Assembly: GCA_016188265.1 (NCBI GenBank)
Contig: JACPID010000005.1
Coordinates: 38,126-102,125, forward strand
Length of the DNA stretch: 64,000 nt
Direction of reading: 5' to 3'
Source of the DNA: Candidatus Woesearchaeota archaeon
Lineage (GTDB): Archaea; Nanobdellota; Nanobdellia; Woesearchaeales; ARS49
Shown here piece by piece: positions 32,227 to 55,944 of this stretch. The notes under the pieces are model-generated. The model did no database searches and was not told where the DNA came from. It saw only the letters and a program-made list of their open reading frames with translations. Position numbers and translations under genes: made by a program. Numbering within the stretch: the first letter of the stretch is position 1; each line of letters begins with the position of its first letter.

Positions 32227-33165
32227 ATGAGCTCTATTGTTGTTATTGGCGGAGGAACTGGAAGTTATACTGTATTAAGGGGCCTTAAAAAGTATACAGA
32301 CCAGCTTACTGCAATTGTTTCTATGTTTGACAGCGGAGGAAGCACTGGAAAATTAAGAGATGAATTTGGCTATCTTCCTCCTGGGGATATTAGAAGATGT
32401 TTGATTGCTTTAAGCCCTGAATCTACAGATAATTTGTTTTTAAGAAGGCTATTTGAGCACCGTTTTGGCAATGGAGAAGGATTAAAAGGGCATAGTTTTG
32501 GGAATTTGTTTCTTACTGCACTAAGAGACATAACTGGCAGTGATTTAGAAGCTATTAAGCAGGCTGCAAGAATTCTTAATATCAAAGGAAAAGTTCTTCC
32601 AGTTACTTTGAATAATTGCACTCTTTGCGCTGAATTAGAAGATGGGCAGATTGTTAAAGGAGAAACAAATATTGATATTCCAAAACACAATCCTTCATTG
32701 AGAATAAAAAGAGTTTTTCATGAGCCTGCAGCGCTTGCTCATCATGAATGTATTGAATCAATTAAAAATGCTAAAGCGATTATAATAGGTCCAGGTGATT
32801 TATATACATCAATAGTTTCAACACTTTCTGTTGAAGGAATATCAGAAGCAATTCAAGAAAGCAGTGCGAAAAAAATATATATTTGCAATATAATGACTAA
32901 ACATGGTGAAACAACGGGTTTTAGAGTGTCAGATCATGTCAGCATAGTTAATGAGTATATGCCTATTGATTATGTGCTTTGCAATAATAAAAGAGGAAAT
33001 CCTATGTTAATGAAAAAGTATGAGGAAGAAAATGCATTTTTTGTTGAGATTGATTATGAAAATCTTAAAAGCTTCAACATTATTGAGCGCAATTTAATAA
33101 CAGAGCCAATATTGTTGCGTCATGATTCTGTAAAACTTGCAAAAACAGTTATGGAGCTGCTATGA
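32227..33165 (+). CDS. UPF0052 (YvcK/CofD-like) family protein
   Basis: VVIGGGTGSYTVLRGLK...AIVSMFDSGGSTGKLRDEFGYLPPGDIRRCLIAL matches YvcK/CofD. Confidence 0.7.
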   Translation: MSSIVVIGGGTGSYTVLRGLKKYTDQLTAIVSMFDSGGSTGKLRDEFGYLPPGDIRRCLIALSPESTDNLFLRRLFEHRFGNGEGLKGHSFGNLFLTALRDITGSDLEAIKQAARILNIKGKVLPVTLNNCTLCAELEDGQIVKGETNIDIPKHNPSLRIKRVFHEPAALAHHECIESIKNAKAIIIGPGDLYTSIVSTLSVEGISEAIQESSAKKIYICNIMTKHGETTGFRVSDHVSIVNEYMPIDYVLCNNKRGNPMLMKKYEEENAFFVEIDYENLKSFNIIERNLITEPILLRHDSVKLAKTVMELL

Positions 33166-33886: not shown

Positions 33887-34186
33887 TCAACTAAATTGTT
33901 TTATTATTTCTAGTGATTTTTTCTGTGTATCATATTGAATATTTCCTAATATTCCGTGATCTGCCAATATGTCTAACATATCTCGCACACTCAGTTCATT
34001 AAGTTCAGCAGCCTCTCTAAGTGTTATTTTTCCTTCAGAATATAGTTTAATTGTATATTCTTGTACTCCGAGATGCAATAGTTGTCTTAGTGCTGTAGAT
34101 TCATCAACTTTTTCTTTTTTAGTGCGAAATTTTATTGCTCGCACCAATCTTGCCGGCAAACGTGTGGTTTTTGCTATTGATTTCAT
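33887..34186 (-). CDS. UPF0175-family small protein (antitoxin-like partner of DUF3368)
   Basis: LYSEGKITLREAAELNELSVRDMLDILADHGIL is the UPF0175 signature. Confidence 0.65.
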   Translation of the reverse strand: MKSIAKTTRLPARLVRAIKFRTKKEKVDESTALRQLLHLGVQEYTIKLYSEGKITLREAAELNELSVRDMLDILADHGILGNIQYDTQKKSLEIIKQFS

Positions 34187-34192
34187 TTTTCA

Positions 34193-34684
34193 TCACTTTA
34201 TTTCATTCATGCATGATTCATATTCTTGGCAACTAATATTTTGTTGTAAGTTTTTTATTGTTGTAATTGCTTTTTCTTTGCTTATTTTTTTCTGCATATA
34301 CATTAAAACTATAAGTGATCCTGGAGTTACTGCTTTTTTGTTAATGTTTTGCAGTAATCTCAAAAACTTTTGGTCATCGCTTGACAACAAATCATATTTT
34401 ACTTGAGTGCTTATTCGATACACATCTTGTTCTCCACCCATCAGCCCTAATTCTAGTATTTCTTTTTCTACTTTTGGTTCTTTTTTTGTTTTAATAATCT
34501 TTATCTTATTTTTTTCAACATTCTTTTTAATTATTAACGCATCAGGTTTTCCTTCTGCTTTATCTATGCATTCTTCTTTAACGCAAGTTGGTATTAACAC
34601 CTCAAAAGCATTCACTATGTGTTCTTTTGCTCCTGCTTTTGTTATCTTAATTAAACTATCTGTATCAAACAACAATACTGTCAT
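34193..34684 (-). CDS. DUF3368 PIN-like protein (toxin-like)
   Basis: MTVLLFDTDSLIKITKAG...LIPTCVKEE matches the N-terminal DUF3368 motif; the C-terminal GGEQDV...LLSSDD region also fits. Confidence 0.6.
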   Translation of the reverse strand: MTVLLFDTDSLIKITKAGAKEHIVNAFEVLIPTCVKEECIDKAEGKPDALIIKKNVEKNKIKIIKTKKEPKVEKEILELGLMGGEQDVYRISTQVKYDLLSSDDQKFLRLLQNINKKAVTPGSLIVLMYMQKKISKEKAITTIKNLQQNISCQEYESCMNEIK

Positions 34685-34792
34685 ACGTAATATAATAATG
34701 TACACATATATAAATGTTCACAAAATCTCTTTTTCTTTGCTTCATTTTTTACAATAAAGTACATTTAGTGAACCAAGCATTTAAATATTCAT

Positions 34793-35020
34793 ATGATTAT
34801 TCATATGATAAAAGAGGGATTTTTATTGAAGAGAAAGCTTCAGAAAACAAATAAAGACCAGTACATACTTACAATTCCTAAAGCATTAGTTGAAGTTCTA
34901 AACTGGAAAGATAAAGAAGTAATAGAATTTATTTTTGATGCAGATAAAATAGTCTTGCACAATAATCATTCAAACAATAAATTTTCTAGTTCTAAAAGAG
35001 GCGGTAAAAATCAAACTTAA
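34793..35020 (+). CDS. AbrB/SpoVT-like small DNA-binding protein
   Basis: YILTIPKALVEVLNWKDKEVIEF fits the swapped-hairpin beta motif. Confidence 0.4.
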   Translation: MIIHMIKEGFLLKRKLQKTNKDQYILTIPKALVEVLNWKDKEVIEFIFDADKIVLHNNHSNNKFSSSKRGGKNQT

Positions 35021-35027
35021 AACTACC

Positions 35028-38000
35028 TTGCTGCTTGTTTTATTGGCTGTTGTTATTTCATCAATTATTTTTGTTTATGCTGTTAATTTTGGAGATTCAA
35101 GCCCTGACACTGGCGAAGCAGACGGAGGAGCAAACAGAGGAACATTTGCTGTAGGAACAGGAACATTTACAGATACTAGATCTGATAATGATATTTATTT
35201 TGGCATTGAAAGAGCTATTGGAACTGCAGCAGCAGCTAATCAGACAGTAGAGTTTAACATTAGTATATTAAGCACTAATTCTTCTATTAGAATTACTGAA
35301 ATTAATCTAAGCGTTAAGTATTGTCATGCTAGAAGGGTTAGTAATATTTGTAATAGTGGAGCAGGATCTGCTCCTCAAGGAACTAATGGGTCTATGAGTA
35401 TTTTTATTTTTAACTCTACTGCTTTTGAAAAAATTGGAAGTCTTAATTCTACAACAACTGCTACTGAAATAGAAATAAGAGCTAATGCTTCTGGGAGAAA
35501 TAATTATGGCATTTACAATAATTCTCAAGGATATGTTAATATTAGCTTTGAGTTTGCATGGAGTGGTGCAGGAAGAAGCGCTTTTTTAAATGATCATACT
35601 AATTTAACGATTTCTTATGACAGGGCTCCTGTTGTTAATTTAGTTTCTCCTGTAAATAATAGTTTAGTAAATCCTGGTGAGATAAACTTTACTTGTAGTG
35701 CTACAGATGATTTTGGTTTAGCTAATATAACTTTATTTCATAATTTAAATGGTAGTTTTGTTGCTAATCAAACAAACACGAGTTTTGGAGGAACAAGCAA
35801 TTCAACAACTTTTACTTTAACAAATGTTTCTGAAAGAGTGAATGGTTTGTGGAATTGTTTTGCTTTTGATAATGCTAATTTATCAAGTTTTGCTGGTTCA
35901 AATTTTACAATAGATACTAGTTTCTTGAATATTAGTGTTGTTGGATGTAATCCTAGCAACACTGATATTAACCAAAGTACTATTTGTAATGCTACAATAA
36001 CAGATAATACTGGAGTTAGTGTTGTTCAAGCTAATGTAACAATGCCTAATGGCACTATTCTAGTTCAGACTCTTTCTAATACAACCAGTAACTATTTTTT
36101 TAATTTTACAGATACTAACTTAACTGGAAGGTATAATATTACTTGGATTGCTAATGATTCTTTAAATAATAACAAAACTGATGTAACGGGTTTTTTTACA
36201 GCTGGCAATGTAGTTCCTAATGTAACGCTCATTAATCCAGTTAATGGTTTTAATACAAGTGTGATTAATCAAACCTTTACTTTTAATGTTACAGATGATT
36301 TTGATAGTTCAGTGTCTTGTTCATTGATATTTAATGATATTACTAATCAAACTAATTCGTCTGTTGGTGTTAATGCTAATAGAACATTTGTTCTTAATAA
36401 TATTGTTGATGGCCAGAATAATTGGAGTGTTTCTTGTGCTGATAGTGGTGGAAAATCAGATCAGCCGGGAAATAGAAGAATTAATATTGATACAAAATCT
36501 CCGGAATTTATTAGTTTAACAACAGTTCCTGATGATGCTGATGGTCTTGATAACGGTGTTGATATTCTTGTTAGGGCTAATGTTACTGATAATACAACTG
36601 CTGTTAATAATAGTCTTGTTTTTTTAGATTTTAAAAGATCAACTCAAACTAAATTCACTCAAAAGCAAATGACTTTTAATTCTAGCACAGGATTTTTTGA
36701 AGCAATATTCAATCAAAATCAAGCAGCAACTTATAATTTAAGAATTAATGCAACAGATATAGTTAGAAATTCAGGCATAAGCAATACTATTGATATTACT
36801 TTAGATACTGAACGTACTTGGGTTGATAGGCCAACTCAGTTGGTATTGCCCGCACCTAATTTTAATCTTAATGGAAGCGATCTTTATACAGTAAATAATA
36901 CTGGTGATTTTAATCAACAATTTACTTTAGCCTCAAATTATTCACTTACATTCTTTAATGAAAGTGCAACTTTTATTTTAACAGCTAAAGAAATAAAAAC
37001 AATAAATGTTACAGCAACTGCCACTGATCAAACATTCACTAGATTTACACTTAACACAAGCACGAATAATGCAGAGCCTCTTTCTAGAACAACTAAAGCA
37101 ACAATTGTTGTTGCTCCTAATCAGCCAATACTTGTTGCAGAAATTACATCTGCACCAGATGTTGTAACACAAGGACAAATTGGCGTAAGCCTTATTGCTG
37201 AGCTAGAAAATGTTGGTGAAGGCAATGCAACAGATGTTGTTTTTAGTTTTGATTTACCTAGTGACTGGTTGATAAGAGCAGGTAATCAAAGCTCAAATAT
37301 AGGCAATATGACTTCAGGAGATCTTGCTACATTAGTTTTAGAAGTTAACATATCTAACAATGCTGTAGTTGCTAATCAGACAATTGTTGCTAATGCTACT
37401 GGAAATAATCAAACAGGAAGTAATATCGCTCCTTTAGGATTAATTTTTGAAGATACTAAAATAGTTGAAGTAAGAGGAAAACCTGGAATTCTCGGAGCAG
37501 GTGGTGCAGCAGCAGGAGCAGCTGCAGCAGCAGGAGCAGCAGCTGCAGCAGCAGGTGGCCAGCCTTTTCCTACGCCTCCTCTTGTTAGAAGTTTGTTTAC
37601 TGAAGAGTTTTTAGAAACAGAAGAAGTAGTTCACTTGACTAGAGGGGAAGAAACAAGTTTTCCTTTAAAAATTACTAATGTTTTTGGCAACACTACATTG
37701 TTTGATGTTAAATTAAGTATTCAAGGATTTTTAGCTCAATACTTAGATCATACTCCTGAAAAGCTTGATGATATTAAGTATGGTTTTAGCAAGTCATTTA
37801 TTATTAATGTTGCTAGTCCTGCTTATAGAAAAAGAGGGGTTCATAATTTAGTATTTAACATTAAAGGTTTTGCTACTGGCAGGTTTATTATTGATAGAAA
37901 TGGAACTCCTGAAGAAATTAATGCAGTTATTGATTTTACTGAAAAAAGAAATGTTACACTTTATATTCATGAAATCAATCCATTAATAGCAGAACAAGCA

Positions 38001-38984
38001 TATAATACATCAATAAAAAAATTTATTGAATTAAAAGAAGCTGGTTTTCCTGCTAAAAAAGCTTCAAAACTATTTGAAAAAATAAACAATTCTTATTTTA
38101 GTTTTGATTATTTGCAAGTTAAAATATTAAGTGAAGAGCTTCAAGAATTGCATAAAACTGCATTTAGTGCTAATAACATAATTAAAGAACTGCAAGAAAA
38201 GATTAAAAAATCTGAGCAAGCGGGCCTTGATGTTAGTTCTACACAAAAACTTGTTGATTTAGCTCTTATTGCTTTTGAAAGAGAAGATTTTATTTTAGCT
38301 AAAAAAAGAGCTGAAGAAGGACGGCTTATTGAGTTTTTAGAAGTTAAAGGGGCATTTAATATTGTTAGGTTTGTAGAACGATTTTGGTGGGCAATTATAC
38401 TGGTGATATTATTTGTTAGTGTAAGCAGTTATGTTGTTTATAGAAGAATGCTTGTTCAAATTATTAATCAGCGTATTGAAAATCTTATGATCGAAGAAGT
38501 TAACATTGTTAGTTTAATTAAAGAAGTTAAAGAGCAGTGTTTTATTAAAAAAGAAATGTCTCTTGAAAGATATCATAAGTTGATGTATAATTATGAAAAA
38601 AGAATAGAACAAATTAAAACTATTATTTCTCAATTAAGAACAAAAAGAATTGGAATGTTAAGCATTCAAGATGAGCTGGCTGCGTTGATGGAAGAAAAGA
38701 AGAGAATTGAGCAATTAATAAAAGATACTCAGGAAATGTATTATGTTAAGAAGACCGTTAATTATTCTGATTATCTTTCAAGAATTGATGAATATAATGT
38801 TCGTAAATCAGAGATTGAAAAAGAGCTTGCAATTCTGGAAGCAAAAAGCATAAGAGACATTCAACAAGAGTTAGAAATGCATAAGCACATAGAACATCCT
38901 GATTGGGAGAAAAAGATCGCAGTATGGAAATTAAAATTTAGAAAATATTTGGAGAATATTATTCGTTACGTGCATAGAATATGA
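35028..38984 (+). CDS. giant surface glycoprotein (1318 aa): N-terminal signal anchor, about 1100-aa sequon-rich ectodomain, Ala/Gly linker, TM, cytoplasmic coiled-coil tail
   Basis: Dozens of N-x-S/T sequons, an AGGAAAGAAAAAGAAAAAAGG linker, a TM (WWAIILVILFVSVSSYVVY), then a conserved tail. It starts with TTG; there is no in-frame ATG after the upstream stop at 34950. Confidence 0.6.
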   Translation: MLLVLLAVVISSIIFVYAVNFGDSSPDTGEADGGANRGTFAVGTGTFTDTRSDNDIYFGIERAIGTAAAANQTVEFNISILSTNSSIRITEINLSVKYCHARRVSNICNSGAGSAPQGTNGSMSIFIFNSTAFEKIGSLNSTTTATEIEIRANASGRNNYGIYNNSQGYVNISFEFAWSGAGRSAFLNDHTNLTISYDRAPVVNLVSPVNNSLVNPGEINFTCSATDDFGLANITLFHNLNGSFVANQTNTSFGGTSNSTTFTLTNVSERVNGLWNCFAFDNANLSSFAGSNFTIDTSFLNISVVGCNPSNTDINQSTICNATITDNTGVSVVQANVTMPNGTILVQTLSNTTSNYFFNFTDTNLTGRYNITWIANDSLNNNKTDVTGFFTAGNVVPNVTLINPVNGFNTSVINQTFTFNVTDDFDSSVSCSLIFNDITNQTNSSVGVNANRTFVLNNIVDGQNNWSVSCADSGGKSDQPGNRRINIDTKSPEFISLTTVPDDADGLDNGVDILVRANVTDNTTAVNNSLVFLDFKRSTQTKFTQKQMTFNSSTGFFEAIFNQNQAATYNLRINATDIVRNSGISNTIDITLDTERTWVDRPTQLVLPAPNFNLNGSDLYTVNNTGDFNQQFTLASNYSLTFFNESATFILTAKEIKTINVTATATDQTFTRFTLNTSTNNAEPLSRTTKATIVVAPNQPILVAEITSAPDVVTQGQIGVSLIAELENVGEGNATDVVFSFDLPSDWLIRAGNQSSNIGNMTSGDLATLVLEVNISNNAVVANQTIVANATGNNQTGSNIAPLGLIFEDTKIVEVRGKPGILGAGGAAAGAAAAAGAAAAAAGGQPFPTPPLVRSLFTEEFLETEEVVHLTRGEETSFPLKITNVFGNTTLFDVKLSIQGFLAQYLDHTPEKLDDIKYGFSKSFIINVASPAYRKRGVHNLVFNIKGFATGRFIIDRNGTPEEINAVIDFTEKRNVTLYIHEINPLIAEQAYNTSIKKFIELKEAGFPAKKASKLFEKINNSYFSFDYLQVKILSEELQELHKTAFSANNIIKELQEKIKKSEQAGLDVSSTQKLVDLALIAFEREDFILAKKRAEEGRLIEFLEVKGAFNIVRFVERFWWAIILVILFVSVSSYVVYRRMLVQIINQRIENLMIEEVNIVSLIKEVKEQCFIKKEMSLERYHKLMYNYEKRIEQIKTIISQLRTKRIGMLSIQDELAALMEEKKRIEQLIKDTQEMYYVKKTVNYSDYLSRIDEYNVRKSEIEKELAILEAKSIRDIQQELEMHKHIEHPDWEKKIAVWKLKFRKYLENIIRYVHRI
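37493..37557 (+). repeat. GCA/GCT-rich simple-sequence repeat encoding the poly-Ala/Gly linker
   Basis: The stretch gcagcagcaggagcagctgcagcagcagga... stands out against AT-rich flanks. Confidence 0.6.
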
Positions 38985-40252
38985 AAAAATCAATAATAAC
39001 AATATGTTGCACAGTATTTTTTTTAGTTATGTTTACTGTATTTGCTCAAGAAGATATTGCTGAAGCTGAGCTGACGCAAAAGTATACTGGAATTAATGAA
39101 ATAGGTGCTGAAGAATATTTAGAAAATTCTGAGAAAATAATTCAAGCCATGGGAAATGCTAATTTAAGTATAGATAAAATGAAGGTTTTGCTTCAGGAAG
39201 TTGATGAAGCGTTTAATCAAAAAAAGTATGCTGAAGTAAAAGCAGGGTATTTTAATATAAAACAGCATTATGAAAGCGCTTTTGCTGCTCGTGAACGTTT
39301 TAAAATAGTGGATGAGTTGATTAAAACTGCTGAACAAAAATGGAGAGATCCGAAACAAGCAAAAAACATGCGGGCATTAGCGCAGGCAGCTTTTGAAAGA
39401 GAAGATTATGTTGAAGCTGTGGATAGGGCTGTACAAGCGCAAACAATTGTTGTATCAGAAGCTAAAGCAGTAAGCTGGAGATATATTTTTTATTATTATT
39501 GGTGGGCTTTTTTACTTGCAACAACAATCTTAATTATTATTTTAATAATTCTTTACTATCGCAAAAAATTAATCTTGCTAAGCCAGAGAATTGAAGACTT
39601 ATCTAAAGAAGAGCTGAATATTATGAATTTGATTCAAGAAAATCAGCAGAGTTATTATGAAAAAAAAGAAATATCCCCTTCACAATATCATAAAGCAATG
39701 TATGAGTACGAAAAAAGGCTTAATCAGATTAGAAGAGAGCTGGCAGGGTTGAGAACAAAACGCATAAAATTAGTTGGAATTAAAAAAGAACTTGAAAATC
39801 TTGAGAGAGAAAAAAAGCATTTGTTAGGATTGATAAATAAAGTTCAAGAACAGTTTTATGTTAAGAAAACATTAAGTTATAACAAGTACAGATTTAAAAT
39901 AGAAGAGTTTTATAATCGTCTGGCAGAAGTTGAGGAGAGTTTTGCTTTATTAAGTGGGAAAAAAGAAAATGAGCTGGATAAAAACTTGCATAATTACTTA
40001 ATAAATAGGAGAAAGCCCGTTAAAAAAAGCAAGTTAGTTGAAATGCTTATTTTACCTGAGAAGGATATGGCAAAGTATAAGAAGTTTAACAAGTTAAGAA
40101 CAGTATACGAAACAGAAGGTAAAAAGCAATTATCAAAAAAAATTACAAAAATACAATCATTAAAAGAATTAAAGCCTTCTGAAAAAGTTAAAAGCGAGGG
40201 ATCTAAAGAAAACAGATTAAAAAAATTAAGCATTATTTACAAAAATGGCTGA
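38981..40252 (+). CDS. paralog of the C-terminal module of the giant protein (signal peptide, short ectodomain, TM, coiled-coil tail)
   Basis: AQAAFEREDYVEA...WWAFLL(TM)...RIEDLSKEELNIMNLI...SQYHKAMYEYEKRLNQI...LRTKRIKL...YVKKTLSY aligns with residues about 1090-1260 of the giant protein. Confidence 0.55.
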   Translation: MKKSIITICCTVFFLVMFTVFAQEDIAEAELTQKYTGINEIGAEEYLENSEKIIQAMGNANLSIDKMKVLLQEVDEAFNQKKYAEVKAGYFNIKQHYESAFAARERFKIVDELIKTAEQKWRDPKQAKNMRALAQAAFEREDYVEAVDRAVQAQTIVVSEAKAVSWRYIFYYYWWAFLLATTILIIILIILYYRKKLILLSQRIEDLSKEELNIMNLIQENQQSYYEKKEISPSQYHKAMYEYEKRLNQIRRELAGLRTKRIKLVGIKKELENLEREKKHLLGLINKVQEQFYVKKTLSYNKYRFKIEEFYNRLAEVEESFALLSGKKENELDKNLHNYLINRRKPVKKSKLVEMLILPEKDMAKYKKFNKLRTVYETEGKKQLSKKITKIQSLKELKPSEKVKSEGSKENRLKKLSIIYKNG

Positions 40253-41003
40253 AACTATTGGTTTTATTGCAATCAAAGGAGGTGTTGGAAAAACTACTTG
40301 CACTGCAAACATAGGAGCGAGTCTGGCGTATAAATTTAATAAAAAGGTTTTATTGGTTGATGCTAATTTTACAGCTCCAAATCTTGGTTTTTATTTTGAT
40401 ATTTTTGATACTAAAAAAACCATTCATGATGTTTTGCAAAATAAAGTAAAAATCGAAGATGCTATAGTTGAGTATAATGAAAAAATTCATATTATTCCAG
40501 GAGCGCTTTGCCAAGGCGCTATCAAAAAACCCCTTGTACTTGATGCTGTGCTGAAAAAAGTAAAAGATGCGTATGATATTATATTGATTGATTCTTCGCC
40601 AAATATAGAAAATGAGATTTTATTCACTATTAATGCCAGTGATGTTGTTTATACTGTAACTACTCCTGATTTTCCAACATTAAGCACAACATTGCGCTTG
40701 CTTAAATTAACTCATCAAAAAAAGAATTATGTTAATGGATTGATATTAAATAAAGTAAAGTACAAAAAATATGAGTTAGAAAAAAGAGAAATTGAAAAAA
40801 CTGCAGAAGCTCCTGTTATTGGGGTTATTCCTAATGATTGGAAAGTTGAAGAATCACTGAGCATTCCAAAACCATTGCCATTGTACGCTCCTAAAAGCAA
40901 TGCTGCTGTTGCTTTTAATTCAATTGCTGCAATGATTATTGATGAAGATTACAAAGATCCAAGATTTTTAGCCAGGTTGAAAAATTTATTTATGAGAAGA
41001 TGA
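40245..41003 (+). CDS. ParA/MinD-family ATPase
   Basis: Deviant Walker A AIKGGVGKTT, LLVDAN (Walker A'), and ILIDSSP (Walker B). Confidence 0.75.
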   Translation: MAETIGFIAIKGGVGKTTCTANIGASLAYKFNKKVLLVDANFTAPNLGFYFDIFDTKKTIHDVLQNKVKIEDAIVEYNEKIHIIPGALCQGAIKKPLVLDAVLKKVKDAYDIILIDSSPNIENEILFTINASDVVYTVTTPDFPTLSTTLRLLKLTHQKKNYVNGLILNKVKYKKYELEKREIEKTAEAPVIGVIPNDWKVEESLSIPKPLPLYAPKSNAAVAFNSIAAMIIDEDYKDPRFLARLKNLFMRR

Positions 41004-42511
41004 ATGGAAAAAATATAGAGCAACAAACAAAAGAAGCATTGTTAAAAAAGAGAAGTAAGTTTAAGTTTATTAGGAAAGTATTTGATAAGAAATTAAAGCT
41101 TGACAAAGCAACAGCAAAAACTAAAATAGTGCCTAAAGAAAATACCTCTAAAATAATTATTCAAAAAAGTTCTACACAAAAAACAGAACAACAAACAAAA
41201 GAAGCATTGTTAAAAAAACGTAGTCAAAATAAATTACGTCTTATACTAAAAAATGCGTACTTAACAAGCAAAAGCATATTCAACACTTTTAAAAAAACCA
41301 TCCAACAACACTTAAGAAACAGAGCATTAAAAAATAAGGAAGCAAAGCTAAATCAACTAAAAAAATGGACAGAAAAATATTATGAAGAAGAAATTCCAAT
41401 AAAAAAAGAACATCATACTTATATTGCAATAACATTAATAGTTATTCTTGCAGCATTAAGCTTTGTTGCAATTCAATCAAATTCTGCATTAATAGGCGAG
41501 TATATCTCTTCTATAACTGCGGCAGTTATTAATGTTCAACCAGCGCAAATTGCAAAAACAACCAGAGATCCTTTATTATTGGGAATGGTTGAAAATGAAA
41601 CATCAGAAATCATAATTACAGAAGCAATGGCTGAAGAAGCTCTGCTGAAAGCTAATAAAACAATTCTTGAACTGAAGGTGTTGAATTTTAGCACGCAGTA
41701 CATGCTGGATGCTTATTTAGAAGCTAAAAAAGCCTTTGATGGAAAAAATGTAGCTGAACTTTCTGAAAAAATCAAGTCAATAAAAAATGAGACTGAAAAG
41801 CAAGCATTTCTTAATGCATTAAACACAACTTTCACTAGTGAAGAAATTAAAAGGCTTGCTGCTGGCGATGAAAAAATTAGAGAAAACTATACAAGAACAT
41901 TGATTTATACTTCTTTAATAGAACAAAGAAAAGAATTAACTTTTGAAATAAATGATGAAATAACCTTGTTAGAAGAAGTTCTTTCAGGGCTTAATAGAAC
42001 AGAATATAATTTTACAGAAGTGGATTTAATGCACGCTGAAATAAAAGAAAAATTTGAAAAAGAACAGCTGGACGAGATTAAGCCTATAATTGAAGAAGCT
42101 TACAGAAAAATTGAAGAAGTACAATTAGAATCTGCACGTTTAAGGGCTTTTTTTAAAGCTGCAAGGCAAAATATTGGAAGCTTTATCAAAAGACACTGGC
42201 TTGCAATTATAATAACTTCAGTTATTCTAAGTTTTATTGCATGGATAACTTATAATGAAGTAATGATAACTATTTTAAGAAAAAGAATTAGTGATATGAG
42301 AATAGAGCAAAATGTTTTGAAAGATTTAACAAAAAAAATTCAAAAAAATTATTTTGGTGAAGGCAGTATTCCTAAAAGTGTTTATGAAATTAGAAAGCTT
42401 AAGTATGAAGAAAGAAATTTGCAAATAAAAGAACAGCTTCCTGTTGTTGAAGCTAATTTAGAAAAAAAAGAAAATAAAAGATTTTATCTTTTGCATTTTT
42501 GGAGGAAATAA
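41000..42511 (+). CDS. coiled-coil membrane protein sharing the TM + tail module
   Basis: An internal TM and a C-terminal WLAIIITSVIL(TM)...RISDMRIEQNVLKDL...YFGEGSIPKSVYEIRKLKYEERNLQI homologous to the tails of 35028 and 38981. Confidence 0.5.
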   Translation: MNGKNIEQQTKEALLKKRSKFKFIRKVFDKKLKLDKATAKTKIVPKENTSKIIIQKSSTQKTEQQTKEALLKKRSQNKLRLILKNAYLTSKSIFNTFKKTIQQHLRNRALKNKEAKLNQLKKWTEKYYEEEIPIKKEHHTYIAITLIVILAALSFVAIQSNSALIGEYISSITAAVINVQPAQIAKTTRDPLLLGMVENETSEIIITEAMAEEALLKANKTILELKVLNFSTQYMLDAYLEAKKAFDGKNVAELSEKIKSIKNETEKQAFLNALNTTFTSEEIKRLAAGDEKIRENYTRTLIYTSLIEQRKELTFEINDEITLLEEVLSGLNRTEYNFTEVDLMHAEIKEKFEKEQLDEIKPIIEEAYRKIEEVQLESARLRAFFKAARQNIGSFIKRHWLAIIITSVILSFIAWITYNEVMITILRKRISDMRIEQNVLKDLTKKIQKNYFGEGSIPKSVYEIRKLKYEERNLQIKEQLPVVEANLEKKENKRFYLLHFWRK

Positions 42512-43075
42512 ATGATTGCAATAGAAACTGTTCAGGCTTTTAGAATAAAAGATATTATAGCTCTTTTCTCATTAGCTTTGCTTTTAACTTTTATTACACT
42601 AATTTTACAGTATTTTGAGATTTATTTTTTGTTTTATTTTATAATGTTTTTATTATCTTTTTTCTTAACAATTACAGTATTTCTAGTTAGAAAAGCTGGA
42701 AGCGCAACATTATTTTTTATTATTACTTCTTTAATCTCATATTATTTTCCACTGTTAGGTATTCTATCAGAACTGAATAAGTTTCTTGTTCTTACAAGCA
42801 TAGGTATAATATTTGAATTGTTTTTTTTGGTATTAAAACTTGAAATTAAAAACATACCTATTGATGTTGTTTTTGGAGCTGGTTTTTCTATTGCAAGTTT
42901 TCCCTGGCTTATTTTGTTTTTAACAAAAATAGAATACACTTACCAACTTTTAATAAAAACTTTAAATGTTAGTTTAAGCGCATTTTTTATAGCATTAATT
43001 GCCAGTTGTTTAGCATTTCTTTTATGGTATGAAATTAAGAAAACAAAGATTATTTTAAGATATGAATTTTTATAA
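42512..43075 (+). CDS. polytopic membrane protein (about 5-6 TM)
   Basis: Hydrophobic throughout. Confidence 0.45.
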   Translation: MIAIETVQAFRIKDIIALFSLALLLTFITLILQYFEIYFLFYFIMFLLSFFLTITVFLVRKAGSATLFFIITSLISYYFPLLGILSELNKFLVLTSIGIIFELFFLVLKLEIKNIPIDVVFGAGFSIASFPWLILFLTKIEYTYQLLIKTLNVSLSAFFIALIASCLAFLLWYEIKKTKIILRYEFL

Positions 43076-44164
43076 CTAACCGCCTCCGACTTGGCCAAAT
43101 ACTTCTTGTTCTGGATATACAACAATTCCTTGATCTGTAATTTTCATCGCTACAACCTTTTTCTCAAACTTAGCTCCTCTGATTTTTAATATTTCAATTG
43201 CACTTTCCCTTACTGTTCCTCTTTGAACATTATATAAAATAATAACTCCGTCTGCTAAGAATTCCTCAACACCAGCAGTTGTTAATCTATTTAATCCATA
43301 AGTTCTTTCAGATACTAAAAAACTTGTGACATTGCTTTCTTCCAATAAATTAAATAATTGCTCAATATAAATCCTATAATTTTCTTCTTTGCCATAAAAT
43401 GCACTTGAAATAGCTGTCAAAGAATCAATAATTACTCTATCAGGAGTAAATCCTTTTGGAAATATTAAAGGCTTGATATCAATTAATAGCTCGCCTTTGG
43501 CTCTTTCAAGCATTGCAGTTACTTGCCTTGTTATGTCAAAAGGATTAACTTTCTGAAGAACCAGCAATCCTTTTTTTTCAAGTTCTTCAACATTAAACCC
43601 AAAATCTTTCATATGTTTTTTTAATCGTTCAGGGCTTTCTTCAAAAGTCATGTATAAGCATTTTTCACCTTTGTTTGCTGCATAATTACAAATTTGCAAT
43701 CCCATTATTGTTTTTCCAGTTCCAGGCCCTCCGCATAAAAGTGATGATGTCCCTCTAGGAAATCCTTTATCTAGAAGATCATCAAAACCAGTTACACCTG
43801 TTAATGCCCATTCTTTTGTATCACTTTTTTTTTCTTTTATTGCTTCAGCAACAGTAAACTCAATTCTTTTAGCTGGCGCTTCTAAAAATGGCGCTGGTTT
43901 TATTTTTCTAGCATGATAAAAACTTCTTAAATCTTTAAAAAGCTCATTTTCAGAGTTGGCTTTATAAAAGTCATGGCGCCTTTCTTTTCTACTAGTTAAT
44001 ATGCCTAAATTTGCAAATTTTTTAAGTTCTTTGCTTGCTGTAGCAGGGGCTATTTTAATTAATCTAGCAACTTCCCTAACATTAAACTCTCTGCTAGCTT
44101 CTTCTATAAAAACCCGAAGAATGTTTAATTCTTTAAACACATGTTTGTTTATAGTTTCAAACAT
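43076..44164 (-). CDS. wHTH-fused KaiC/RecA-superfamily ATPase (intact P-loop)
   Basis: N-terminal HTH region (REVARLIKIAPATASKELKKF), then GFDDLLDKGFPRGTSSLLCGGPGTGKT Walker A, and VIIDSLT Walker B-like. Confidence 0.7.
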   Translation of the reverse strand: MFETINKHVFKELNILRVFIEEASREFNVREVARLIKIAPATASKELKKFANLGILTSRKERRHDFYKANSENELFKDLRSFYHARKIKPAPFLEAPAKRIEFTVAEAIKEKKSDTKEWALTGVTGFDDLLDKGFPRGTSSLLCGGPGTGKTIMGLQICNYAANKGEKCLYMTFEESPERLKKHMKDFGFNVEELEKKGLLVLQKVNPFDITRQVTAMLERAKGELLIDIKPLIFPKGFTPDRVIIDSLTAISSAFYGKEENYRIYIEQLFNLLEESNVTSFLVSERTYGLNRLTTAGVEEFLADGVIILYNVQRGTVRESAIEILKIRGAKFEKKVVAMKITDQGIVVYPEQEVFGQVGGG

Positions 44165-44223: not shown

Positions 44224-44784
44224 TCACACTGTAATTAATTTGTCACAAAATTGAGAAATAGTTGCTATTAATAATTTAGAAGCATCATCTTCAACAAATA
44301 TAAATAATCCAGCAACACTGCTTGTTCTAATTTGGTTGTTTATTATATAATGTAAGAATTTTGCAGTTAATTCAAGATCATTATAAATAAACAAAGTAGA
44401 TACAGAATCAAAAAGCAAAAAACTAAAATCACCACAATTTAAAGCAGAGGATATTGCAAGAGATAGTTCAGTTAATGACTGAGGCCCTTTTACAAAAGAG
44501 CAATTAACATGTGACAAATCTGTTAAACCAGAATGTTTGCTTATACAATCAATAAAAAACAATTTAGAAATATCTATTTTATTTTGTTTCAAAATGTTTT
44601 TTAAAAAAAAACAAGGAGTATTTAGAGTTACATAAATGCCTTTTAATTTAAGTTTTTCAACTAAAAACTTGATTATTGAAATAGTTGTTTGTTTGTAATT
44701 TTCAGCAGAGGTTGCAATACCATAAACTTTGTTTTTAGAAAATTCATTTAATTCTTTAGTTAAATTCTTGCTATTGTTGTTCAT
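44224..44784 (-). CDS. KaiC-like RecA-fold protein lacking the Walker A P-loop (paralog 1)
   Basis: Retains the KaiC-like blocks FIDCISK, LLFDSVSTLFIYND, FLHYIIN and LFIFVED but has no GxxxxGK[ST]. Confidence 0.5.
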   Translation of the reverse strand: MNNNSKNLTKELNEFSKNKVYGIATSAENYKQTTISIIKFLVEKLKLKGIYVTLNTPCFFLKNILKQNKIDISKLFFIDCISKHSGLTDLSHVNCSFVKGPQSLTELSLAISSALNCGDFSFLLFDSVSTLFIYNDLELTAKFLHYIINNQIRTSSVAGLFIFVEDDASKLLIATISQFCDKLITV

Positions 44785-45345
44785 TTATAATTTGATGCAT
44801 TTATCAGAAAACTGTGAAGTTACTGACATTAGCGCTTCTGAATTTTTTTCATCAACATATAAAAAAAAACCAGCAATATTTAAAGTTCTGATTTGGCTGT
44901 TAATCAAGTAATGTAAGAATTTACCGGTTGTATTTACATCATTATATATTAAAAATGTTGATACAGAATCAAAAAGCAAAAAATCAAATTTTTTTGTATT
45001 AAGCGCAGAAGATATTGCAAGAGATAAATCTGTCAAGCTCTGCGGATTTGAAAAAGAAACTGAAAGATTTGAATTAGGGTTTTCAAATTGCTTGCTAACA
45101 CAATCAATAAAATGCAGATTAGATAGATTAATTTTTCTTTCTTTAAGCTGTTCATGTAATGTTGAACAGGGGGTATTAAGTGAAACATACACTCCTTTAA
45201 AGCCTAAATTATTTATAAAATGTTCAAGTAAAACAAAGATTACCGTATGATAATAATTAGCATCTGTAAGTATCTCATATACTTTTTTTGAATCAATGTC
45301 TTTTAACTCTTTTAATATTTGTTTTTTAATCATTGATACTTCCAT
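44785..45345 (-). CDS. KaiC-like RecA-fold protein lacking the P-loop (paralog 2; probable ATG at 45345, the track start is GTG at 45396)
   Basis: FIDCVSK, LLFDSVSTFLIYND, FLHYLIN; in tandem with paralog 1 and directly abutting it. Confidence 0.5.
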   Translation of the reverse strand: MEVSMIKKQILKELKDIDSKKVYEILTDANYYHTVIFVLLEHFINNLGFKGVYVSLNTPCSTLHEQLKERKINLSNLHFIDCVSKQFENPNSNLSVSFSNPQSLTDLSLAISSALNTKKFDFLLFDSVSTFLIYNDVNTTGKFLHYLINSQIRTLNIAGFFLYVDEKNSEALMSVTSQFSDKCIKL

Positions 45346-45370
45346 AAAAACCCCCCTTGCTTGTTGTTTT

Positions 45371-45423
45371 AGTACGCGCCATAATTTGTAGTACACTCTT
45401 AATGGCGCGTACTATTTAGAAAA
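45371..45423. promoter_or_regulatory. perfect 12-bp inverted repeat (agtacgcgccat ... atggcgcgtact, 29-nt spacer) upstream of the KaiC-like operon, in the divergent region
   Basis: Read directly; the GC-rich palindrome is conspicuous in AT-rich DNA. It sits between the minus-strand KaiC-like operon and the plus-strand RHH genes. Confidence 0.45.
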
Positions 45424-46679: not shown

Positions 46680-47237
46680 ATGAAAGAAGTTCAAAAAATA
46701 AAAAAAGAGTTGAGCAATCTGCCTGTTGGAAGTATTGTTCTTTTGGAAACAAGCGCAGAAAATATTTTAACAGTAAGCATTCACTCAATTAAATCATTAA
46801 TAGAACAAGGTTACAATGTTATTATTTTGTCTGTAAGCAGGCCTTGTTTTAATCTTATGAATATCTACGAGAAAAGCAGGATAAACACAGAAAATGTTTT
46901 TATTCTAGACTGTATTTGTAAAAGTCAAGGAATTAAAAGTGAAGAAAAGAAAAATGTAATTCATTTGAAAAGTGTTTCTGCACTAACTGAAATATCTCTT
47001 GCAATTAATGAATGCATTACTAGAATTCCTGGCAAAAAACTAGTTTTTATTGATTCTATAACAACAATGCTGATTTATAATGACCAAAATATATTTTCAA
47101 GATTCTTGCATTACTTATTGACAAAGTTAAGAATTCAAAAAATAAGCGGTTTAATGCTTTCCTTAGAAACAGAAGCTGATAAAGAAGTAATGGCTCAAAT
47201 TGCGCAGCTTTGTGATAGAATAATAAAAATAAAATAA
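46680..47237 (+). CDS. KaiC-like RecA-fold protein lacking the P-loop (paralog 3)
   Basis: FILDCICK, LVFIDSITTMLIYND, FLHYLLT, LMLSLETE; the same architecture as paralogs 1 and 2. Confidence 0.5.
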   Translation: MKEVQKIKKELSNLPVGSIVLLETSAENILTVSIHSIKSLIEQGYNVIILSVSRPCFNLMNIYEKSRINTENVFILDCICKSQGIKSEEKKNVIHLKSVSALTEISLAINECITRIPGKKLVFIDSITTMLIYNDQNIFSRFLHYLLTKLRIQKISGLMLSLETEADKEVMAQIAQLCDRIIKIK

Positions 47238-48914: not shown

Positions 48915-50921
48915 ATGAAGCATTCAAGAAAGTTAAGCAAGCGCAATGTTAAAAGTTTAAATTTTTCTTGGAAAAGATCACACTTGTATTTTCTTGCAGT
49001 TGTTGTTGTAGCTTCACTTGTTCTTGTTCTTCCATTACAACCACAATCTAATACTTTAACAGGTTCTCAGACTATTGATACTACTGCTAGAACTGAAACT
49101 GTAGATTGTTCTATTGCTCCGACAAGTGTAAAACAAAACTGTATGAGCAGGCATGGTACTCCACAATTTCAAAGTTTACCTGTTAGCGAGGGTGTTTGTC
49201 AACGTCAAATCACACACCAGACTGTACTTTATCAATGTAAGTATAGAGCAGTAGCTACTACAGCAACATGGACTTGTCCAAACATTGATATGATGCGTAC
49301 TTATTGCTCGCCTGATTTGTACAGAGCAAATAATCCTGGCATAAATGCAGATTTATGGAATGCACTTTTAAGTAAAACAAGATACTGGTGTGATTCAAAC
49401 TATCCACAATCTACTGTTGGAACTTATGTTTGTGATATGCCTGAAGAAATTTGGAACGTAGCTGGTGGAGCACAAAAATGCAGTACTGATGCTTGGTCTG
49501 GAGGAGGCGCATTCTACATATCACAACCATTATCTGTTCAATATACTGAGACTGGTCAGAAATATGCTTGTATGTTTTATGTTCCAGAGCTTATTGTTGA
49601 TAAAGCTGAACAAGCCAGTTCTGCTTATGGACGTTTGTTATTTAGTTGGCGTGAAGCTGATGGCCATCAAGTAACTTTGAAATTTTTAAGCGGAGGAACA
49701 GTATTTCACCAATCGTCTCTTGGAACTTCACAAGTTTTGTTAAGAGGAGAAACAACCTTTCCATTACCAGCTACTCAAACAATAACTGTTCAGGCATGTG
49801 ATCAATATAATGATTGCAGTAATCTGCAAAATATTCAAATCCAGCAAGTAACAGCTCCAGCGCCTAGTCCAGCACCTACACCGCCACCATCTGCACCTGC
49901 TTGCCCTGATGGTATGTATTTGGCAAGTGCAAGTAAGTGTTGTCCTATTGGCACTGCTTTAACACCTGAAGGAACATGTCAAGCTCCTACATCAGCACCG
50001 CCAGCTCCTGCACCTGCTGAAACTTGTCCTAATCCTGCAACTCAATATTTAGTTGCTCCAGGCCAGTGTTGTCCTAAAGGAACTATTTTTGATGGTACAA
50101 ATTGCAGACCGCCGCCAACTGCACCGCCTGCACCAGCTCCAATTATTGTTCAAGCTCCATCACCTGCACCAACATATTATCAGCCTTATGTTCCTACAAG
50201 CGGAGGTGCACGTTGGCAGCCCAAAGTACAGCAAACAATTTCTAGTCCTATTCCTCAAGTTCCAGCAAGACCTCCAAGTATTGAACTGCCTCAAGTTGTT
50301 GAAAAACCTCCTGAATGGGGAGACTGCTTATACCAGCTTGTTTTAATTGAAGGCAAGCCTCAAAAAGGTTATTATCAAGTCAGTACTACTGGAGAAAGCA
50401 AAGAGTGTAGTTTGCTGCCAAAATATGATTCTTTCACAAAATCATTAACTACTGATTTTAAAAAAGAAGAATCTAGCGGATTGCTTGATCGTGTTAAAAA
50501 TGTTCAGTTAGGTAAAGAAGGTTTAGGAATTATAACTTTTGAAGGCGTTATGGATGTTAGAAATCTTGATTTTGATAAAAATGTTGATGTTCAAAAAAGT
50601 TCAGTTATTATAAGAGATGTTCCTCAATTAAGCAGATCTGCTGTTGTCAGATTAGTAAGCCTTGATTTAGAAGAGCCTTTAGTACTTAAAGATGAAAGTC
50701 CTTGTGTTACTTGCAACATATTATCTTATGAAGATGGTGTTCTTGAATTTAGTGTTCCGCGTTCAGGAAGATATGATGTTGTTGAAAGATCTCAAGTATT
50801 TCCTGAAAAAACAAATTGGTTAATGATTATTTTAGCAATTCTTTTGATTTTATTAATTGTCGGCGGAGCTGTTTATTATTACCAGTACGTTTATAAGAAA
50901 AAACAAAAAGAAAAAAGTTAA
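48915..50921 (+). CDS. surface protein with Cys-rich domain, Pro/Ala linkers, repeated CCP-G-T motifs, C-terminal TM anchor
   Basis: Signal anchor; repeats KCCPIGTALTPEGTCQ and QCCPKGTIFDGTNCR separated by APAPSPAPTPPP-type linkers; TM WLMIILAILLILLIVGGAVYYY. Confidence 0.45.
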   Translation: MKHSRKLSKRNVKSLNFSWKRSHLYFLAVVVVASLVLVLPLQPQSNTLTGSQTIDTTARTETVDCSIAPTSVKQNCMSRHGTPQFQSLPVSEGVCQRQITHQTVLYQCKYRAVATTATWTCPNIDMMRTYCSPDLYRANNPGINADLWNALLSKTRYWCDSNYPQSTVGTYVCDMPEEIWNVAGGAQKCSTDAWSGGGAFYISQPLSVQYTETGQKYACMFYVPELIVDKAEQASSAYGRLLFSWREADGHQVTLKFLSGGTVFHQSSLGTSQVLLRGETTFPLPATQTITVQACDQYNDCSNLQNIQIQQVTAPAPSPAPTPPPSAPACPDGMYLASASKCCPIGTALTPEGTCQAPTSAPPAPAPAETCPNPATQYLVAPGQCCPKGTIFDGTNCRPPPTAPPAPAPIIVQAPSPAPTYYQPYVPTSGGARWQPKVQQTISSPIPQVPARPPSIELPQVVEKPPEWGDCLYQLVLIEGKPQKGYYQVSTTGESKECSLLPKYDSFTKSLTTDFKKEESSGLLDRVKNVQLGKEGLGIITFEGVMDVRNLDFDKNVDVQKSSVIIRDVPQLSRSAVVRLVSLDLEEPLVLKDESPCVTCNILSYEDGVLEFSVPRSGRYDVVERSQVFPEKTNWLMIILAILLILLIVGGAVYYYQYVYKKKQKEKS

Positions 50922-54678: not shown

Positions 54679-55944
54679 ATGCGTATGAAAGTTATTACAG
54701 ACTTACACATTCACAGCAGGTATGCAAGAGCTTGTTCTAAAGATTTGTCAATAAAAACATTGTCAAAATATGCTAAAATTAAAGGAGTTGATATTCTTGG
54801 AACAGGAGATTTTCAGCATCCTGAATGGATTAAAGAATTAAAAAAAGAATTAACAGAAGTTTCTCAAGGAATATTTGAATCTAAGGATAAAATGAAGTTC
54901 ATGCTTACAACAGAAATATCATTAATGTATTCTCAAGAAGGCAAAGGCAGAAGAATTCATCTTGTAACCTTAGCGCCTAGTTTTGAAGTTGTTGACCAAA
55001 TAATAGACACGCTTAGTAAAAAAGGAAGGCTAGATTACGATGGCAGGCCTATTTTTGGAATGAGCTGCATTGATTATGTTGATATGATGATGAAAATTAG
55101 TAAAGATATTGAAATAATTCCAGGACATGCATGGACTCCTTGGTTTGGAGTTTTTGGAAGCAAGTCTGGTTTTGATTCATTAAAAGAATGTTTTCAGGAA
55201 AAAACAAAACATATTCATGCTATAGAAACTGGAATTTCATCAACTCCTGATATGAATTGGAGGTTATCTAAATTAGATAATATTTCTATTGTTAGTTTTT
55301 CTGATTTGCACAGTTACTGGCCTCATAGGTTAGGCAGAGAAGCTACTGTTTTTGATATTGATAATTTAAGTTACAATGAGCTACTTGAAAGAATAAGAAA
55401 TAATGAAAAATTTGAAACTATTGAGTTTTTTCCAGAAGAAGGCAAGTATCATTATGATGGCCATAGAAACTGCGGAGTTGTTGCTTCACCTGCAGAATGT
55501 AAAAAATTAAAAGGTATCTGTCCTAATTGCAAAAAACCATTAACTATTGGAGTAGCTCATAGAATTGAAGAGCTTGCTGACAGACCTGAAGGTTATAAAC
55601 CTAAAAACGCAAAACCATTTACAAGGCTTATTCCTCTTTTAGAATTAATAAGCGCTTCAATAGGTACTGGTGTTTCTTCAAAAAAAACCTTTGAAGTTTA
55701 CTATAAACTAATTAAAGCGTTTAGCAACGAGTACAATATATTGTTAAATGTAAAAGAACATGAATTAGAAAATGTTGTTGATAAAAAAATTATTGATTTA
55801 ATAATTAAAAACAGAAGCGGAAAAATAAACTTTATTCCGGGCTATGATGGTGTTTATGGGCATCCAGTATTTGAGGGAGTTGAAGTTAATAAAAAAGAAA
55901 TAAAACCAGTTAAAAAAGAACAAAAATCATTAGAAGAATTTTAA
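54679..55944 (+). CDS. PHP-domain metal-dependent phosphoesterase with C-terminal Cys-cluster
   Basis: The DLHIHS motif at the N-terminus; CPNCKK zinc-ribbon-like region. Confidence 0.5.
   Translation: MRMKVITDLHIHSRYARACSKDLSIKTLSKYAKIKGVDILGTGDFQHPEWIKELKKELTEVSQGIFESKDKMKFMLTTEISLMYSQEGKGRRIHLVTLAPSFEVVDQIIDTLSKKGRLDYDGRPIFGMSCIDYVDMMMKISKDIEIIPGHAWTPWFGVFGSKSGFDSLKECFQEKTKHIHAIETGISSTPDMNWRLSKLDNISIVSFSDLHSYWPHRLGREATVFDIDNLSYNELLERIRNNEKFETIEFFPEEGKYHYDGHRNCGVVASPAECKKLKGICPNCKKPLTIGVAHRIEELADRPEGYKPKNAKPFTRLIPLLELISASIGTGVSSKKTFEVYYKLIKAFSNEYNILLNVKEHELENVVDKKIIDLIIKNRSGKINFIPGYDGVYGHPVFEGVEVNKKEIKPVKKEQKSLEEF

Follow-up and report, generated by a model that had tools for sequence, protein, structure and literature searches.

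The subject of this analysis is a gene cluster in a 64,000-nucleotide (nt) stretch of contig JACPID010000005.1 from a Candidatus Woesearchaeota archaeon (this whole stretch is hereafter the window), three products of which share a homologous membrane-anchor module that joins a transmembrane (TM) helix to a conserved cytoplasmic tail. The open reading frame (ORF) list of the window places six plus-strand genes between positions 34793 and 43075. The first encodes a 75-amino acid (aa) AbrB/SpoVT (MazE-type) DNA-binding protein (34793..35020), which lies 7 nt 5′ of the gene for a 1318-aa surface protein, here called A (35028..38984), whose immunoglobulin (Ig)-like ectodomain is followed by a C-terminal anchor module. 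Next come B, a 423-aa copy of this module without a large ectodomain (38981..40252); C, a MinD/ParA-type ATPase of 252 aa (40245..41003); D, a 503-aa paralogue (41000..42511); and E, a 187-aa polytopic membrane protein (42512..43075). The close packing that had been described as ATGA overlaps is found as such at the A/B and C/D junctions, whereas B and C overlap by 8 nt and D and E abut.

Directly beyond E, on the minus strand, is a gene for a KaiC-like, single-domain ATPase of 362 aa with an N-terminal winged-helix region (43076..44164). It is accompanied by two short KaiC-like proteins that lack a Walker A motif (DUF7504 in Pfam; 186 and 203 aa, 44224..45396, minus strand) and by a third DUF7504 protein of 185 aa on the plus strand at 46680..47237.

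A shared membrane-anchor module

According to composition-corrected BLASTP, A and B are 34% identical over 300 aa (E=7e-50), in a match that spans ~120 extracellular residues, the TM helix and ~190 cytoplasmic residues. The alignments with D comprise the TM helix and ~60-80 cytoplasmic residues (A versus D, 28% identity over 102 aa, E=1e-7; B versus D, 29% over 83 aa, E=3e-7). Composition-preserving shuffles restricted to the cytoplasmic parts give z-scores of 31.6 for A versus B, 4.5 for B versus D and 3.6 for A versus D. At the level of families, a hidden Markov model (HMM) of 16 D-like proteins matches A at 2.8e-28 and B at 5.7e-25, and hhalign relates the D-like to the B-like family with 99.9% probability (E=2.5e-32) over 227 columns that take in the stalk, the TM helix and the first cytoplasmic repeat. 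Profile A2 matches the anchor module of A (aa 983-1273, 37974..38846) at 5e-145. The proposal that A, B and D end in a homologous TM-plus-tail region is thus borne out by pairwise, shuffled and family-level comparisons alike. It is true that the tails are charge-rich and helical, and that the single-pair scores of D against A and B are modest; however, the idea that they look alike only as Lys/Glu-rich coiled coils is hardly credible and was rejected on the BLASTP and shuffle results, since family-level E-values reach 1e-25 to 1e-32 and motifs that follow no heptad pattern (YHK.MY.YE.R, AFEREDF and WWA) are conserved across 28-56 sequences.

Some details of the original prediction need amendment. 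The conserved motif blocks assigned to all three tails belong to sequences that are indeed homologous, but D shares the first repeat only and is without the LRTKRI block, and the first motif in A reads RIEN rather than RIED or RISD. Likewise, the homology of A and B does extend into the membrane-proximal extracellular segment, but it is not confined to these two proteins, because the stalk homology detected by hhalign includes D. Finally, the tail is not a generic coiled coil. As hhalign shows, a helix-loop-helix unit of ~60 aa has been duplicated in tandem in the cytoplasmic part of A and B (99%, E=1e-18), with two copies in A and B and one in D; together with the structure model described below, this makes the tail of A and B a four-helix domain.

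The topology of the three proteins is predicted from hydropathy and from counts of N-x-S/T sequons. A begins with an N-terminal hydrophobic signal or anchor and has one TM helix (aa 1119-1138, 38382-38441), before which lie 63 of its 64 sequons and after which basic residues follow; judging from the sequons, the protein is probably N-glycosylated. Its ectodomain is of the Ig-like/CARDB type, with weak Pfam matches to Big_7 and NPCBM_assoc. The anchor module comprises two extracellular helical repeats (with AFEREDF at 38271-38291), the TM helix, and cytoplasmic repeats 1 (38469-38651) and 2 (38652-38846). A linker made up solely of Ala and Gly, GILGAGGAAAGAAAAAGAAAAAAGG (aa 820-844, 37485-37559), lies between the Ig-like array on one side and the last beta-rich domain with the stalk on the other; a homologue at locus L024 has a Gly-rich stretch at the equivalent position.

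In B, a signal peptide and a helical stalk (aa 38-165) precede the TM helix (aa 173-193, 39497-39559), which is followed by cytoplasmic repeats 1 (39584-39766) and 2 (39767-39961), a basic linker and a C-terminal peptide. D is built differently, with an extracellular helical domain between two TM helices (aa 141-159, 41420-41476; aa 400-418, 42197-42253) and a single cytoplasmic repeat (42281-42460) that ends in a conserved LPV motif. Because there are two TM helices, both ends of D should be cytoplasmic. The N-terminal one is strongly basic (net charge +26 over 137 aa). D-like proteins of other loci lack this basic extension, in which a 13-aa sequence, EQQTKEALLKKRS, occurs twice without change, at aa 7-19 and 63-75 (41018-41056 and 41186-41224).

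AlphaFold2, supplied with 28 homologues, models the whole of B as all-helical, with a predicted local distance difference test (pLDDT) score of 85. The model displays two extracellular helical repeats, the second of which carries the AFEREDY motif, a TM helix that is continuous with the first cytoplasmic helix, cytoplasmic loops with the sequences KKEISP and KKTLSY, and, at the end, a low-confidence basic linker leading to a short C-terminal helix. Modelled alone with 56 homologues, the tail adopts four helices (pLDDT 95, predicted template modelling score 0.79). Tails in general are basic, with a median isoelectric point (pI) of 9.5 and a mean net charge of +6.5. A Foldseek search with the whole-B model returned no significant match.

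Although a word-indexed protein search with B recovered only one relative, the module defines a large family. In an exhaustive HMMER search with a 293-position profile against 1.84 billion cluster representatives, 1518 were matched at E<=1e-3, 848 at <=1e-10 and 488 at <=1e-30. Most members are 1000-5000 aa long and carry the module at the C terminus, behind N-terminal parts with Ig-like, CARDB/NPCBM_assoc or LamG domains. The ectodomain ranges in length from none, in B-like proteins of ~400 aa, to ~5000 aa, and the cytoplasmic domain is the best-conserved part of these otherwise hypervariable proteins. Among GTDB genomes the module occurs in Nanoarchaeota, Woesearchaeota, Aenigmatarchaeota, Hydrothermarchaeota, Thermoplasmatota and metagenome-assembled genomes labelled Methanosarcinales.

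Where the source databases name these proteins at all, they call them "hypothetical protein". A, B, D and the isolated tails match no Pfam or NCBIfam family in searches extended to E=10, and a literature search of incomplete coverage found no account of the tail domain, its paralogous partner or the ATPase-linked cluster. The impression that the family is undescribed therefore holds, and the anchor module with its cytoplasmic four-helix tail appears to be unannotated so far, although a description elsewhere is possible given the coverage of that search. A suspected resemblance of the repeat to SHOCT was not borne out by the Pfam and NCBIfam scans.

Conserved partners and the C-terminal peptide

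The gene order around the module was compared in 18 distinct loci from Nano-, Woese- and Aenigmatarchaeota, Thermoplasmatota and Hydrothermarchaeota. A D-like paralogue follows the large tail protein in every locus with enough downstream sequence, and KaiC-like genes, often with short inactivated copies, are present in 14 of the 18. Other neighbours are less regular: E-like proteins occur in nine loci, MinD in eight, response regulators in five and histidine kinases in four, and in five a small protein with weak winged-helix matches overlaps the start of the large gene. At two loci (L022, 15422-18610; L023, 20707-23423), a response regulator, a short KaiC-like protein and a HAMP histidine kinase stand between the E-like gene and KaiC. 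The module thus belongs to a large family with conserved gene order.

The KaiC-like ATPase of the window contains one KaiC domain (residues 122-353; PF06745, E=1.6e-54) with intact Walker A (GGPGTGKT), FEES and Walker B (VIIDS) motifs. It is not a clock-type protein with the double CI+CII domain, and the curated KaiC equivalog models all score below their cut-offs. Short Walker-A-less KaiC-like (DUF7504) genes recur in related loci. Between the window and locus L001, identity reaches 65% for KaiC, far above the ~32% of the tail proteins; D stands at 29%, E at 35% and MinD at 47%.

The reciprocal comparison started from 80 metagenomic loci with KaiC orthologues, 16 of which have at least 5 kb on both sides. 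A tail-family gene is found in 10 of these 16, usually directly downstream of KaiC, and MinD in one. Some of the six loci in which no tail gene was found have other large ORFs beside the KaiC gene. The broadly conserved, phylum-spanning partners of the module are the D-like paralogue and this KaiC-like ATPase subfamily. MinD, with its eight of 18 loci and one of 16 when KaiC is the starting point, is an accessory of one sub-lineage, and the polytopic protein E is an accessory of sub-lineages as well. The ParA/MinD-type ATPase that the original prediction linked to the tails is accordingly not their core partner, and the KaiC-like ATPase did not figure in that prediction.

The assignment of C to the ParA/MinD group is sound. 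It has a deviant Walker A motif with the signature lysine (IKGGVGKTT, residues 10-18) and matches Pfam AAA_31 (7.8e-22), CbiA and ParA. The best NCBIfam model, TIGR01969 (minD_arch), scores 171 bits against a cut-off of 201.75, and on its sequence C is best called MinD-like rather than a certified MinD. The protein terminates in DPRFLARLKNLFMRR, in which the stretch FLARLKNLF is amphipathic and is a candidate membrane-targeting helix; its syntenic orthologue ends similarly.

Positioning ATPases of the MinD type, such as Haloferax MinD4, exist in archaea, and bacterial MinD and ParA act with peptide partners, MinE and the ParB N terminus, respectively. A candidate for such a peptide exists in B. 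In loci with MinD, the protein encoded immediately upstream bears a long basic extension that ends in I[LI]xxLKEV[YH]K[NH]G; in B this C-terminal peptide is NRLKKLSIIYKNG (40211..40249, plus strand), a putative MinD-binding motif that is suggested by co-occurrence. In MinD-less loci (Thermoplasmatota, Hydrothermarchaeota and others), the protein ends right after repeat 2. Used predictively on further loci, the rule held for P0003, P0043 and P0032, which have the peptide and a MinD gene directly downstream, and for P0044, P0065, P0074 and P0077, which have neither. Altogether, MinD is adjacent in 10 of 11 peptide-bearing loci and in none of 11 curated peptide-less loci, and it was not detected on 14 metagenome contigs that encode a complete, peptide-less C terminus. 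C resembles established MinD/ParA systems in its Walker A motif and C-terminal amphipathic stretch, with the peptide of B as a plausible recruiter or activator; it differs from them in scoring below the minD_arch cut-off, in having neither MinC nor MinE, and in that the candidate peptide sits at the C terminus of a membrane protein.

Tails of other loci end in other peptides, exemplified by ELKKWFPGAFK, REIYKMLKE..IDV and LIAKLRLKVS. The first class, ..EL[KR]K[WL][FY]PGAF[KE], is represented by P0050, P0069, P0074, P0076, P0087, P0096, P0098, P0106 and P0123; the second, R[KR]E[VI]YKMLKE..IDV.., by P0041, P0060, P0065, P0077, P0089 and P0110; and the third, LI[AG]K[LI][RK]LKV[SAG], by P0046, P0049, L009 and L010. 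Each of these classes, at least three in number, may recruit a different cytoplasmic partner, and on this evidence the tail may serve as a modular platform for docking.

Possible roles of the module

The interpretation that we prefer, and to which we give about an even chance, is that the cluster encodes an archaeal membrane-anchor system for large surface proteins, in which A or B forms a hetero-oligomer with D whose cytoplasmic bundle docks P-loop ATPases. A bears a giant, probably N-glycosylated Ig-like ectodomain on a ~300-aa module in which one TM helix joins two extracellular helical repeats to a basic four-helix domain derived from a duplicated helix-loop-helix, and B is a copy of this module without the ectodomain. 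D, a shorter paralogue that retains the stalk and TM helix but has the unit only once, would pair with A and B through the homologous stalk, TM and cytoplasmic segments, yielding a membrane-spanning assembly whose cytoplasmic bundle serves as the docking site. The general regulatory partner would be the KaiC-like ATPase, a neighbour across phyla that is here fused to a winged-helix region and has inactivated KaiC-like proteins beside it; its part would be to read the state of the complex, or to set it, and so to act on regulation. The presumably membrane-binding MinD-type ATPase of the window's sub-lineage would be captured by the LKxxYKNG-type peptide at the end of a long basic linker and would then distribute or cluster the complexes on the membrane, as a lineage-specific positioning partner. 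In this picture, the homologies, the domain anatomy, the synteny and the joint occurrence of peptide and MinD come from the data, and topology, hetero-oligomerisation, ATPase docking and any positioning or regulatory output are proposals built on them.

Several observations weigh against this interpretation. In six of the 16 KaiC-orthologue loci, no tail gene could be detected within 9 kb. Archaea have many KaiC-like genes, and genes may stay adjacent for the sake of co-regulation without any docking of their products. The relationship between peptide and MinD has a lone exception in L024, where a variant peptide is present and MinD is absent from the 9.5-kb contig. In addition, ectodomains that vary so widely do not allow one extracellular function to be deduced for the system.

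Archaeal surface proteins are usually seen as passive coats held in place by a TM helix or a lipid anchor, and such proteins are prime candidates for host attachment in DPANN archaea. SlaB of the Sulfolobales and tetrabrachion of Staphylothermus each combine a large, glycosylated ectodomain with a helical stalk next to the membrane and a TM anchor at the C terminus. DPANN archaea, too, have been described in general terms as having glycosylated, Ig-like surface proteins whose TM helix is C-terminal, and proteins of this kind were proposed as surface-layer (S-layer) anchors (bioRxiv 10.1101/2023.10.27.564410). A corresponding explanation of the cluster is purely structural: A would be a coat or adhesin subunit and B and D would be stalk anchors of the SlaB or tetrabrachion kind, with a cytoplasmic domain that merely stabilises the oligomer or the anchor, while KaiC and MinD regulate expression or are unrelated. 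The heavy sequon load, the Ig-like domains, the C-terminal TM helix and the conserved helical stalk all fit this explanation, and an S-layer-like or attachment role is plausible.

However, no known S-layer domain was detected, the matches being to generic Ig-like, CARDB and LamG domains, and an ectodomain that may be missing altogether or extend to thousands of residues is unlike a lattice subunit. It would also be unexpected of a passive anchor that its cytoplasmic domain is the best-conserved part and that lineage-specific peptides track the neighbouring ATPase. No sequence relationship to the stalk-anchored proteins named above, the DPANN glycoproteins included, was detected, and in contrast to the present module those proteins are not known to possess a conserved cytoplasmic domain, a gene for a paralogous partner or linked KaiC or MinD genes. 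A solely structural role appears unlikely. That the part best kept among hundreds of hypervariable giant surface proteins is the cytoplasmic one, and that it has a paralogous partner, lineage-specific peptides and linked KaiC and MinD ATPases, points to a physical line of communication between surface and cytoplasm that would concern positioning, regulation or export. For DPANN host attachment the module would then offer a handle, with its domain model, its partner genes and a peptide that can be tested.

A second alternative arises from a search of a tail-only profile (131 positions) against 177,635 distinct Protein Data Bank (PDB) sequences. The best match is 8WHN (E=4.9e-5, 26 bits, positions 7-122 of 131; the next match has E=0.014), the cytoplasmic four-helix domain of OST1/ribophorin I from the Asgard archaeon Ca. 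Prometheoarchaeum, which pulls down ribosomes (PMC11417166). When hhalign compares the tail with 37 Asgard OST1 C termini, 105 columns align collinearly, both hairpin loops among them, with a probability of 61% and E=8e-5. A Foldseek search with the tail model likewise ranks 8WHN first (probability 0.99), though with template modelling scores of only ~0.4, and places third a 580-residue chain of the human Sec61-TRAP-OSTA translocon that is probably RPN1. Rank 2 is taken by the helical region of the Sulfolobus CdvA filament (9s9g, probability 0.77); with the sequence profile of the tail it reaches only E=2.8, so this likeness is probably a generic similarity between hairpins.

Homology of the tail to the cytoplasmic domain of OST1/ribophorin I is possible but not established. 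Were the tail an ancient homologue of this ribosome-binding domain, it might tether ribosomes or another large cytoplasmic machine at the membrane for the co-translational export and N-glycosylation of giant surface glycoproteins, under the control of KaiC and MinD; we consider this improbable. Like the domain of 8WHN, or of human RPN1 in 8B6L, the tail is predicted to follow a single TM helix at the C terminus, is modelled as four helices in two hairpins and is basic (pI ~9.5 in both cases). On the other hand, the statistics are marginal for helical, charge-rich sequences. The Ribophorin_I luminal domain (PF04597) is not found by Pfam in A, B, D or eight homologues, no gene for a translocon or oligosaccharyltransferase (OST) component lies among the neighbouring genes scanned, and the conserved neighbours are KaiC and MinD rather than translation factors. 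Unlike ribophorin I, moreover, the tail terminates giant adhesin-like proteins and has a one-hairpin paralogue.

If the relationship were real, a docking module would extend beyond TACK archaea, Asgard archaea and eukaryotes to be widespread in DPANN, Thermoplasmatota and Hydrothermarchaeota. On giant surface glycoproteins and with its one-hairpin partner, this module would couple ribosomes or a large cytoplasmic machine to the site of export and glycosylation, where and when being set by the KaiC- and MinD-type ATPases, and it would bear on the origin of the eukaryotic assembly of ribosome, translocon and OST.

KaiC-like ATPases, among them ArlH/FlaH and proteins with inactivated KaiC domains, have been proposed as archaeal signalling hubs (PMC4858521; work cited in PMC5847659). 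The ATPase of the window resembles these hubs in having one RecA-like KaiC domain whose Walker A and B motifs are intact, in its Walker-A-less DUF7504 paralogues and in its association with response regulators and winged-helix domains. It differs in that genes for an archaellum or a type IV pilus are missing from its surroundings, and a literature search found no report linking a KaiC subfamily to the tails of surface proteins. On this background, the cluster could be pictured as an outside-in contact sensor, whose ectodomain perceives a host cell or surface and signals through stalk and TM helix to the tail, which would sequester or release the KaiC-winged-helix protein and so change transcription, anchoring being secondary. 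The genes that recur nearby would suit a sensor: they encode KaiC-like proteins together with inactivated relatives, response regulators, HAMP histidine kinases and small DNA-binding proteins. So would the signalling role proposed for such ATPases in work cited in PMC5847659. Yet B-like members lack an ectodomain that could sense, conservation does not extend to any ligand-binding domain, and two-component genes occur in only 4-5 of the 18 loci, so that sensing as the principal function seems quite unlikely.

An accessory role to a type IV pilus or archaellum was rejected, since neither the window ORFs that were scanned nor the genes called in related loci include a pilin or archaellin, ArlI/PilB ATPase or ArlJ/TadC gene.

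Other features of the cluster and the window

The AbrB-like regulator, which was correctly placed ahead of the cluster, matches PF04014 with E=3.4e-6 and 27.3 bits, above the gathering score of 24.7, and reaches only 13.6 bits with TIGR01439. In related loci, its slot is filled by an unrelated protein of 66-83 aa with weak winged-helix matches. A TATA-like element read from the sequence, TTTAAATA (34780..34787, plus strand), lies directly 5′ of this first gene and may act as its promoter. The element precedes the annotated ATG by only 6-13 nt, and within the same short region (34780-34812) an in-frame second ATG at 34805 would be a better fit to a leaderless transcript.

Directly upstream of the cluster, on the minus strand (33887-34705), are genes for a UPF0175 protein (99 aa) and for a 170-aa protein that has no Pfam match. 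These two may constitute a toxin-antitoxin pair, the 170-aa product giving the impression of a PIN-like sequence. Their presence on the opposite strand raised the question of whether the AbrB-like gene also belongs to a toxin-antitoxin system; this is not favoured, because the gene lies just 7 nt from A and occupies what is the winged-helix slot in other loci.

The description of E as a polytopic membrane protein holds. E itself has no Pfam match and is 35% identical to a syntenic 200-aa protein in L001. Two of nine members of its family match PF09819 (best 2.3e-6), and the family matches YkoE in the PDB weakly (5EDL, E=0.017). E may thus be distantly similar to the S components of energy-coupling factor (ECF) transporters (YkoE, PF09819), which are also small and polytopic, but the cluster is unlike ECF transporters in having no T or A component.

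Elsewhere in the window, all on the plus strand, two ORFs of 668 aa (48915-50921) and 421 aa (54679-55944) have no significant Pfam match, and a CofD-family gene (2-phospho-L-lactate transferase-like, E=2.6e-93) is located at 32227-33165, in an archaeon that seems to be of the DPANN type with a small genome. A MoxR-type AAA_3 ATPase interrupted by a LAGLIDADG-domain intein (9654-12155) lies downstream of BatA, VWA and DUF7408 proteins (3987-8269), an arrangement of the MoxR-vWA-BatA type. Its genes for FttA/aCPSF1 and ribosomal protein L31e mark the window as archaeal.

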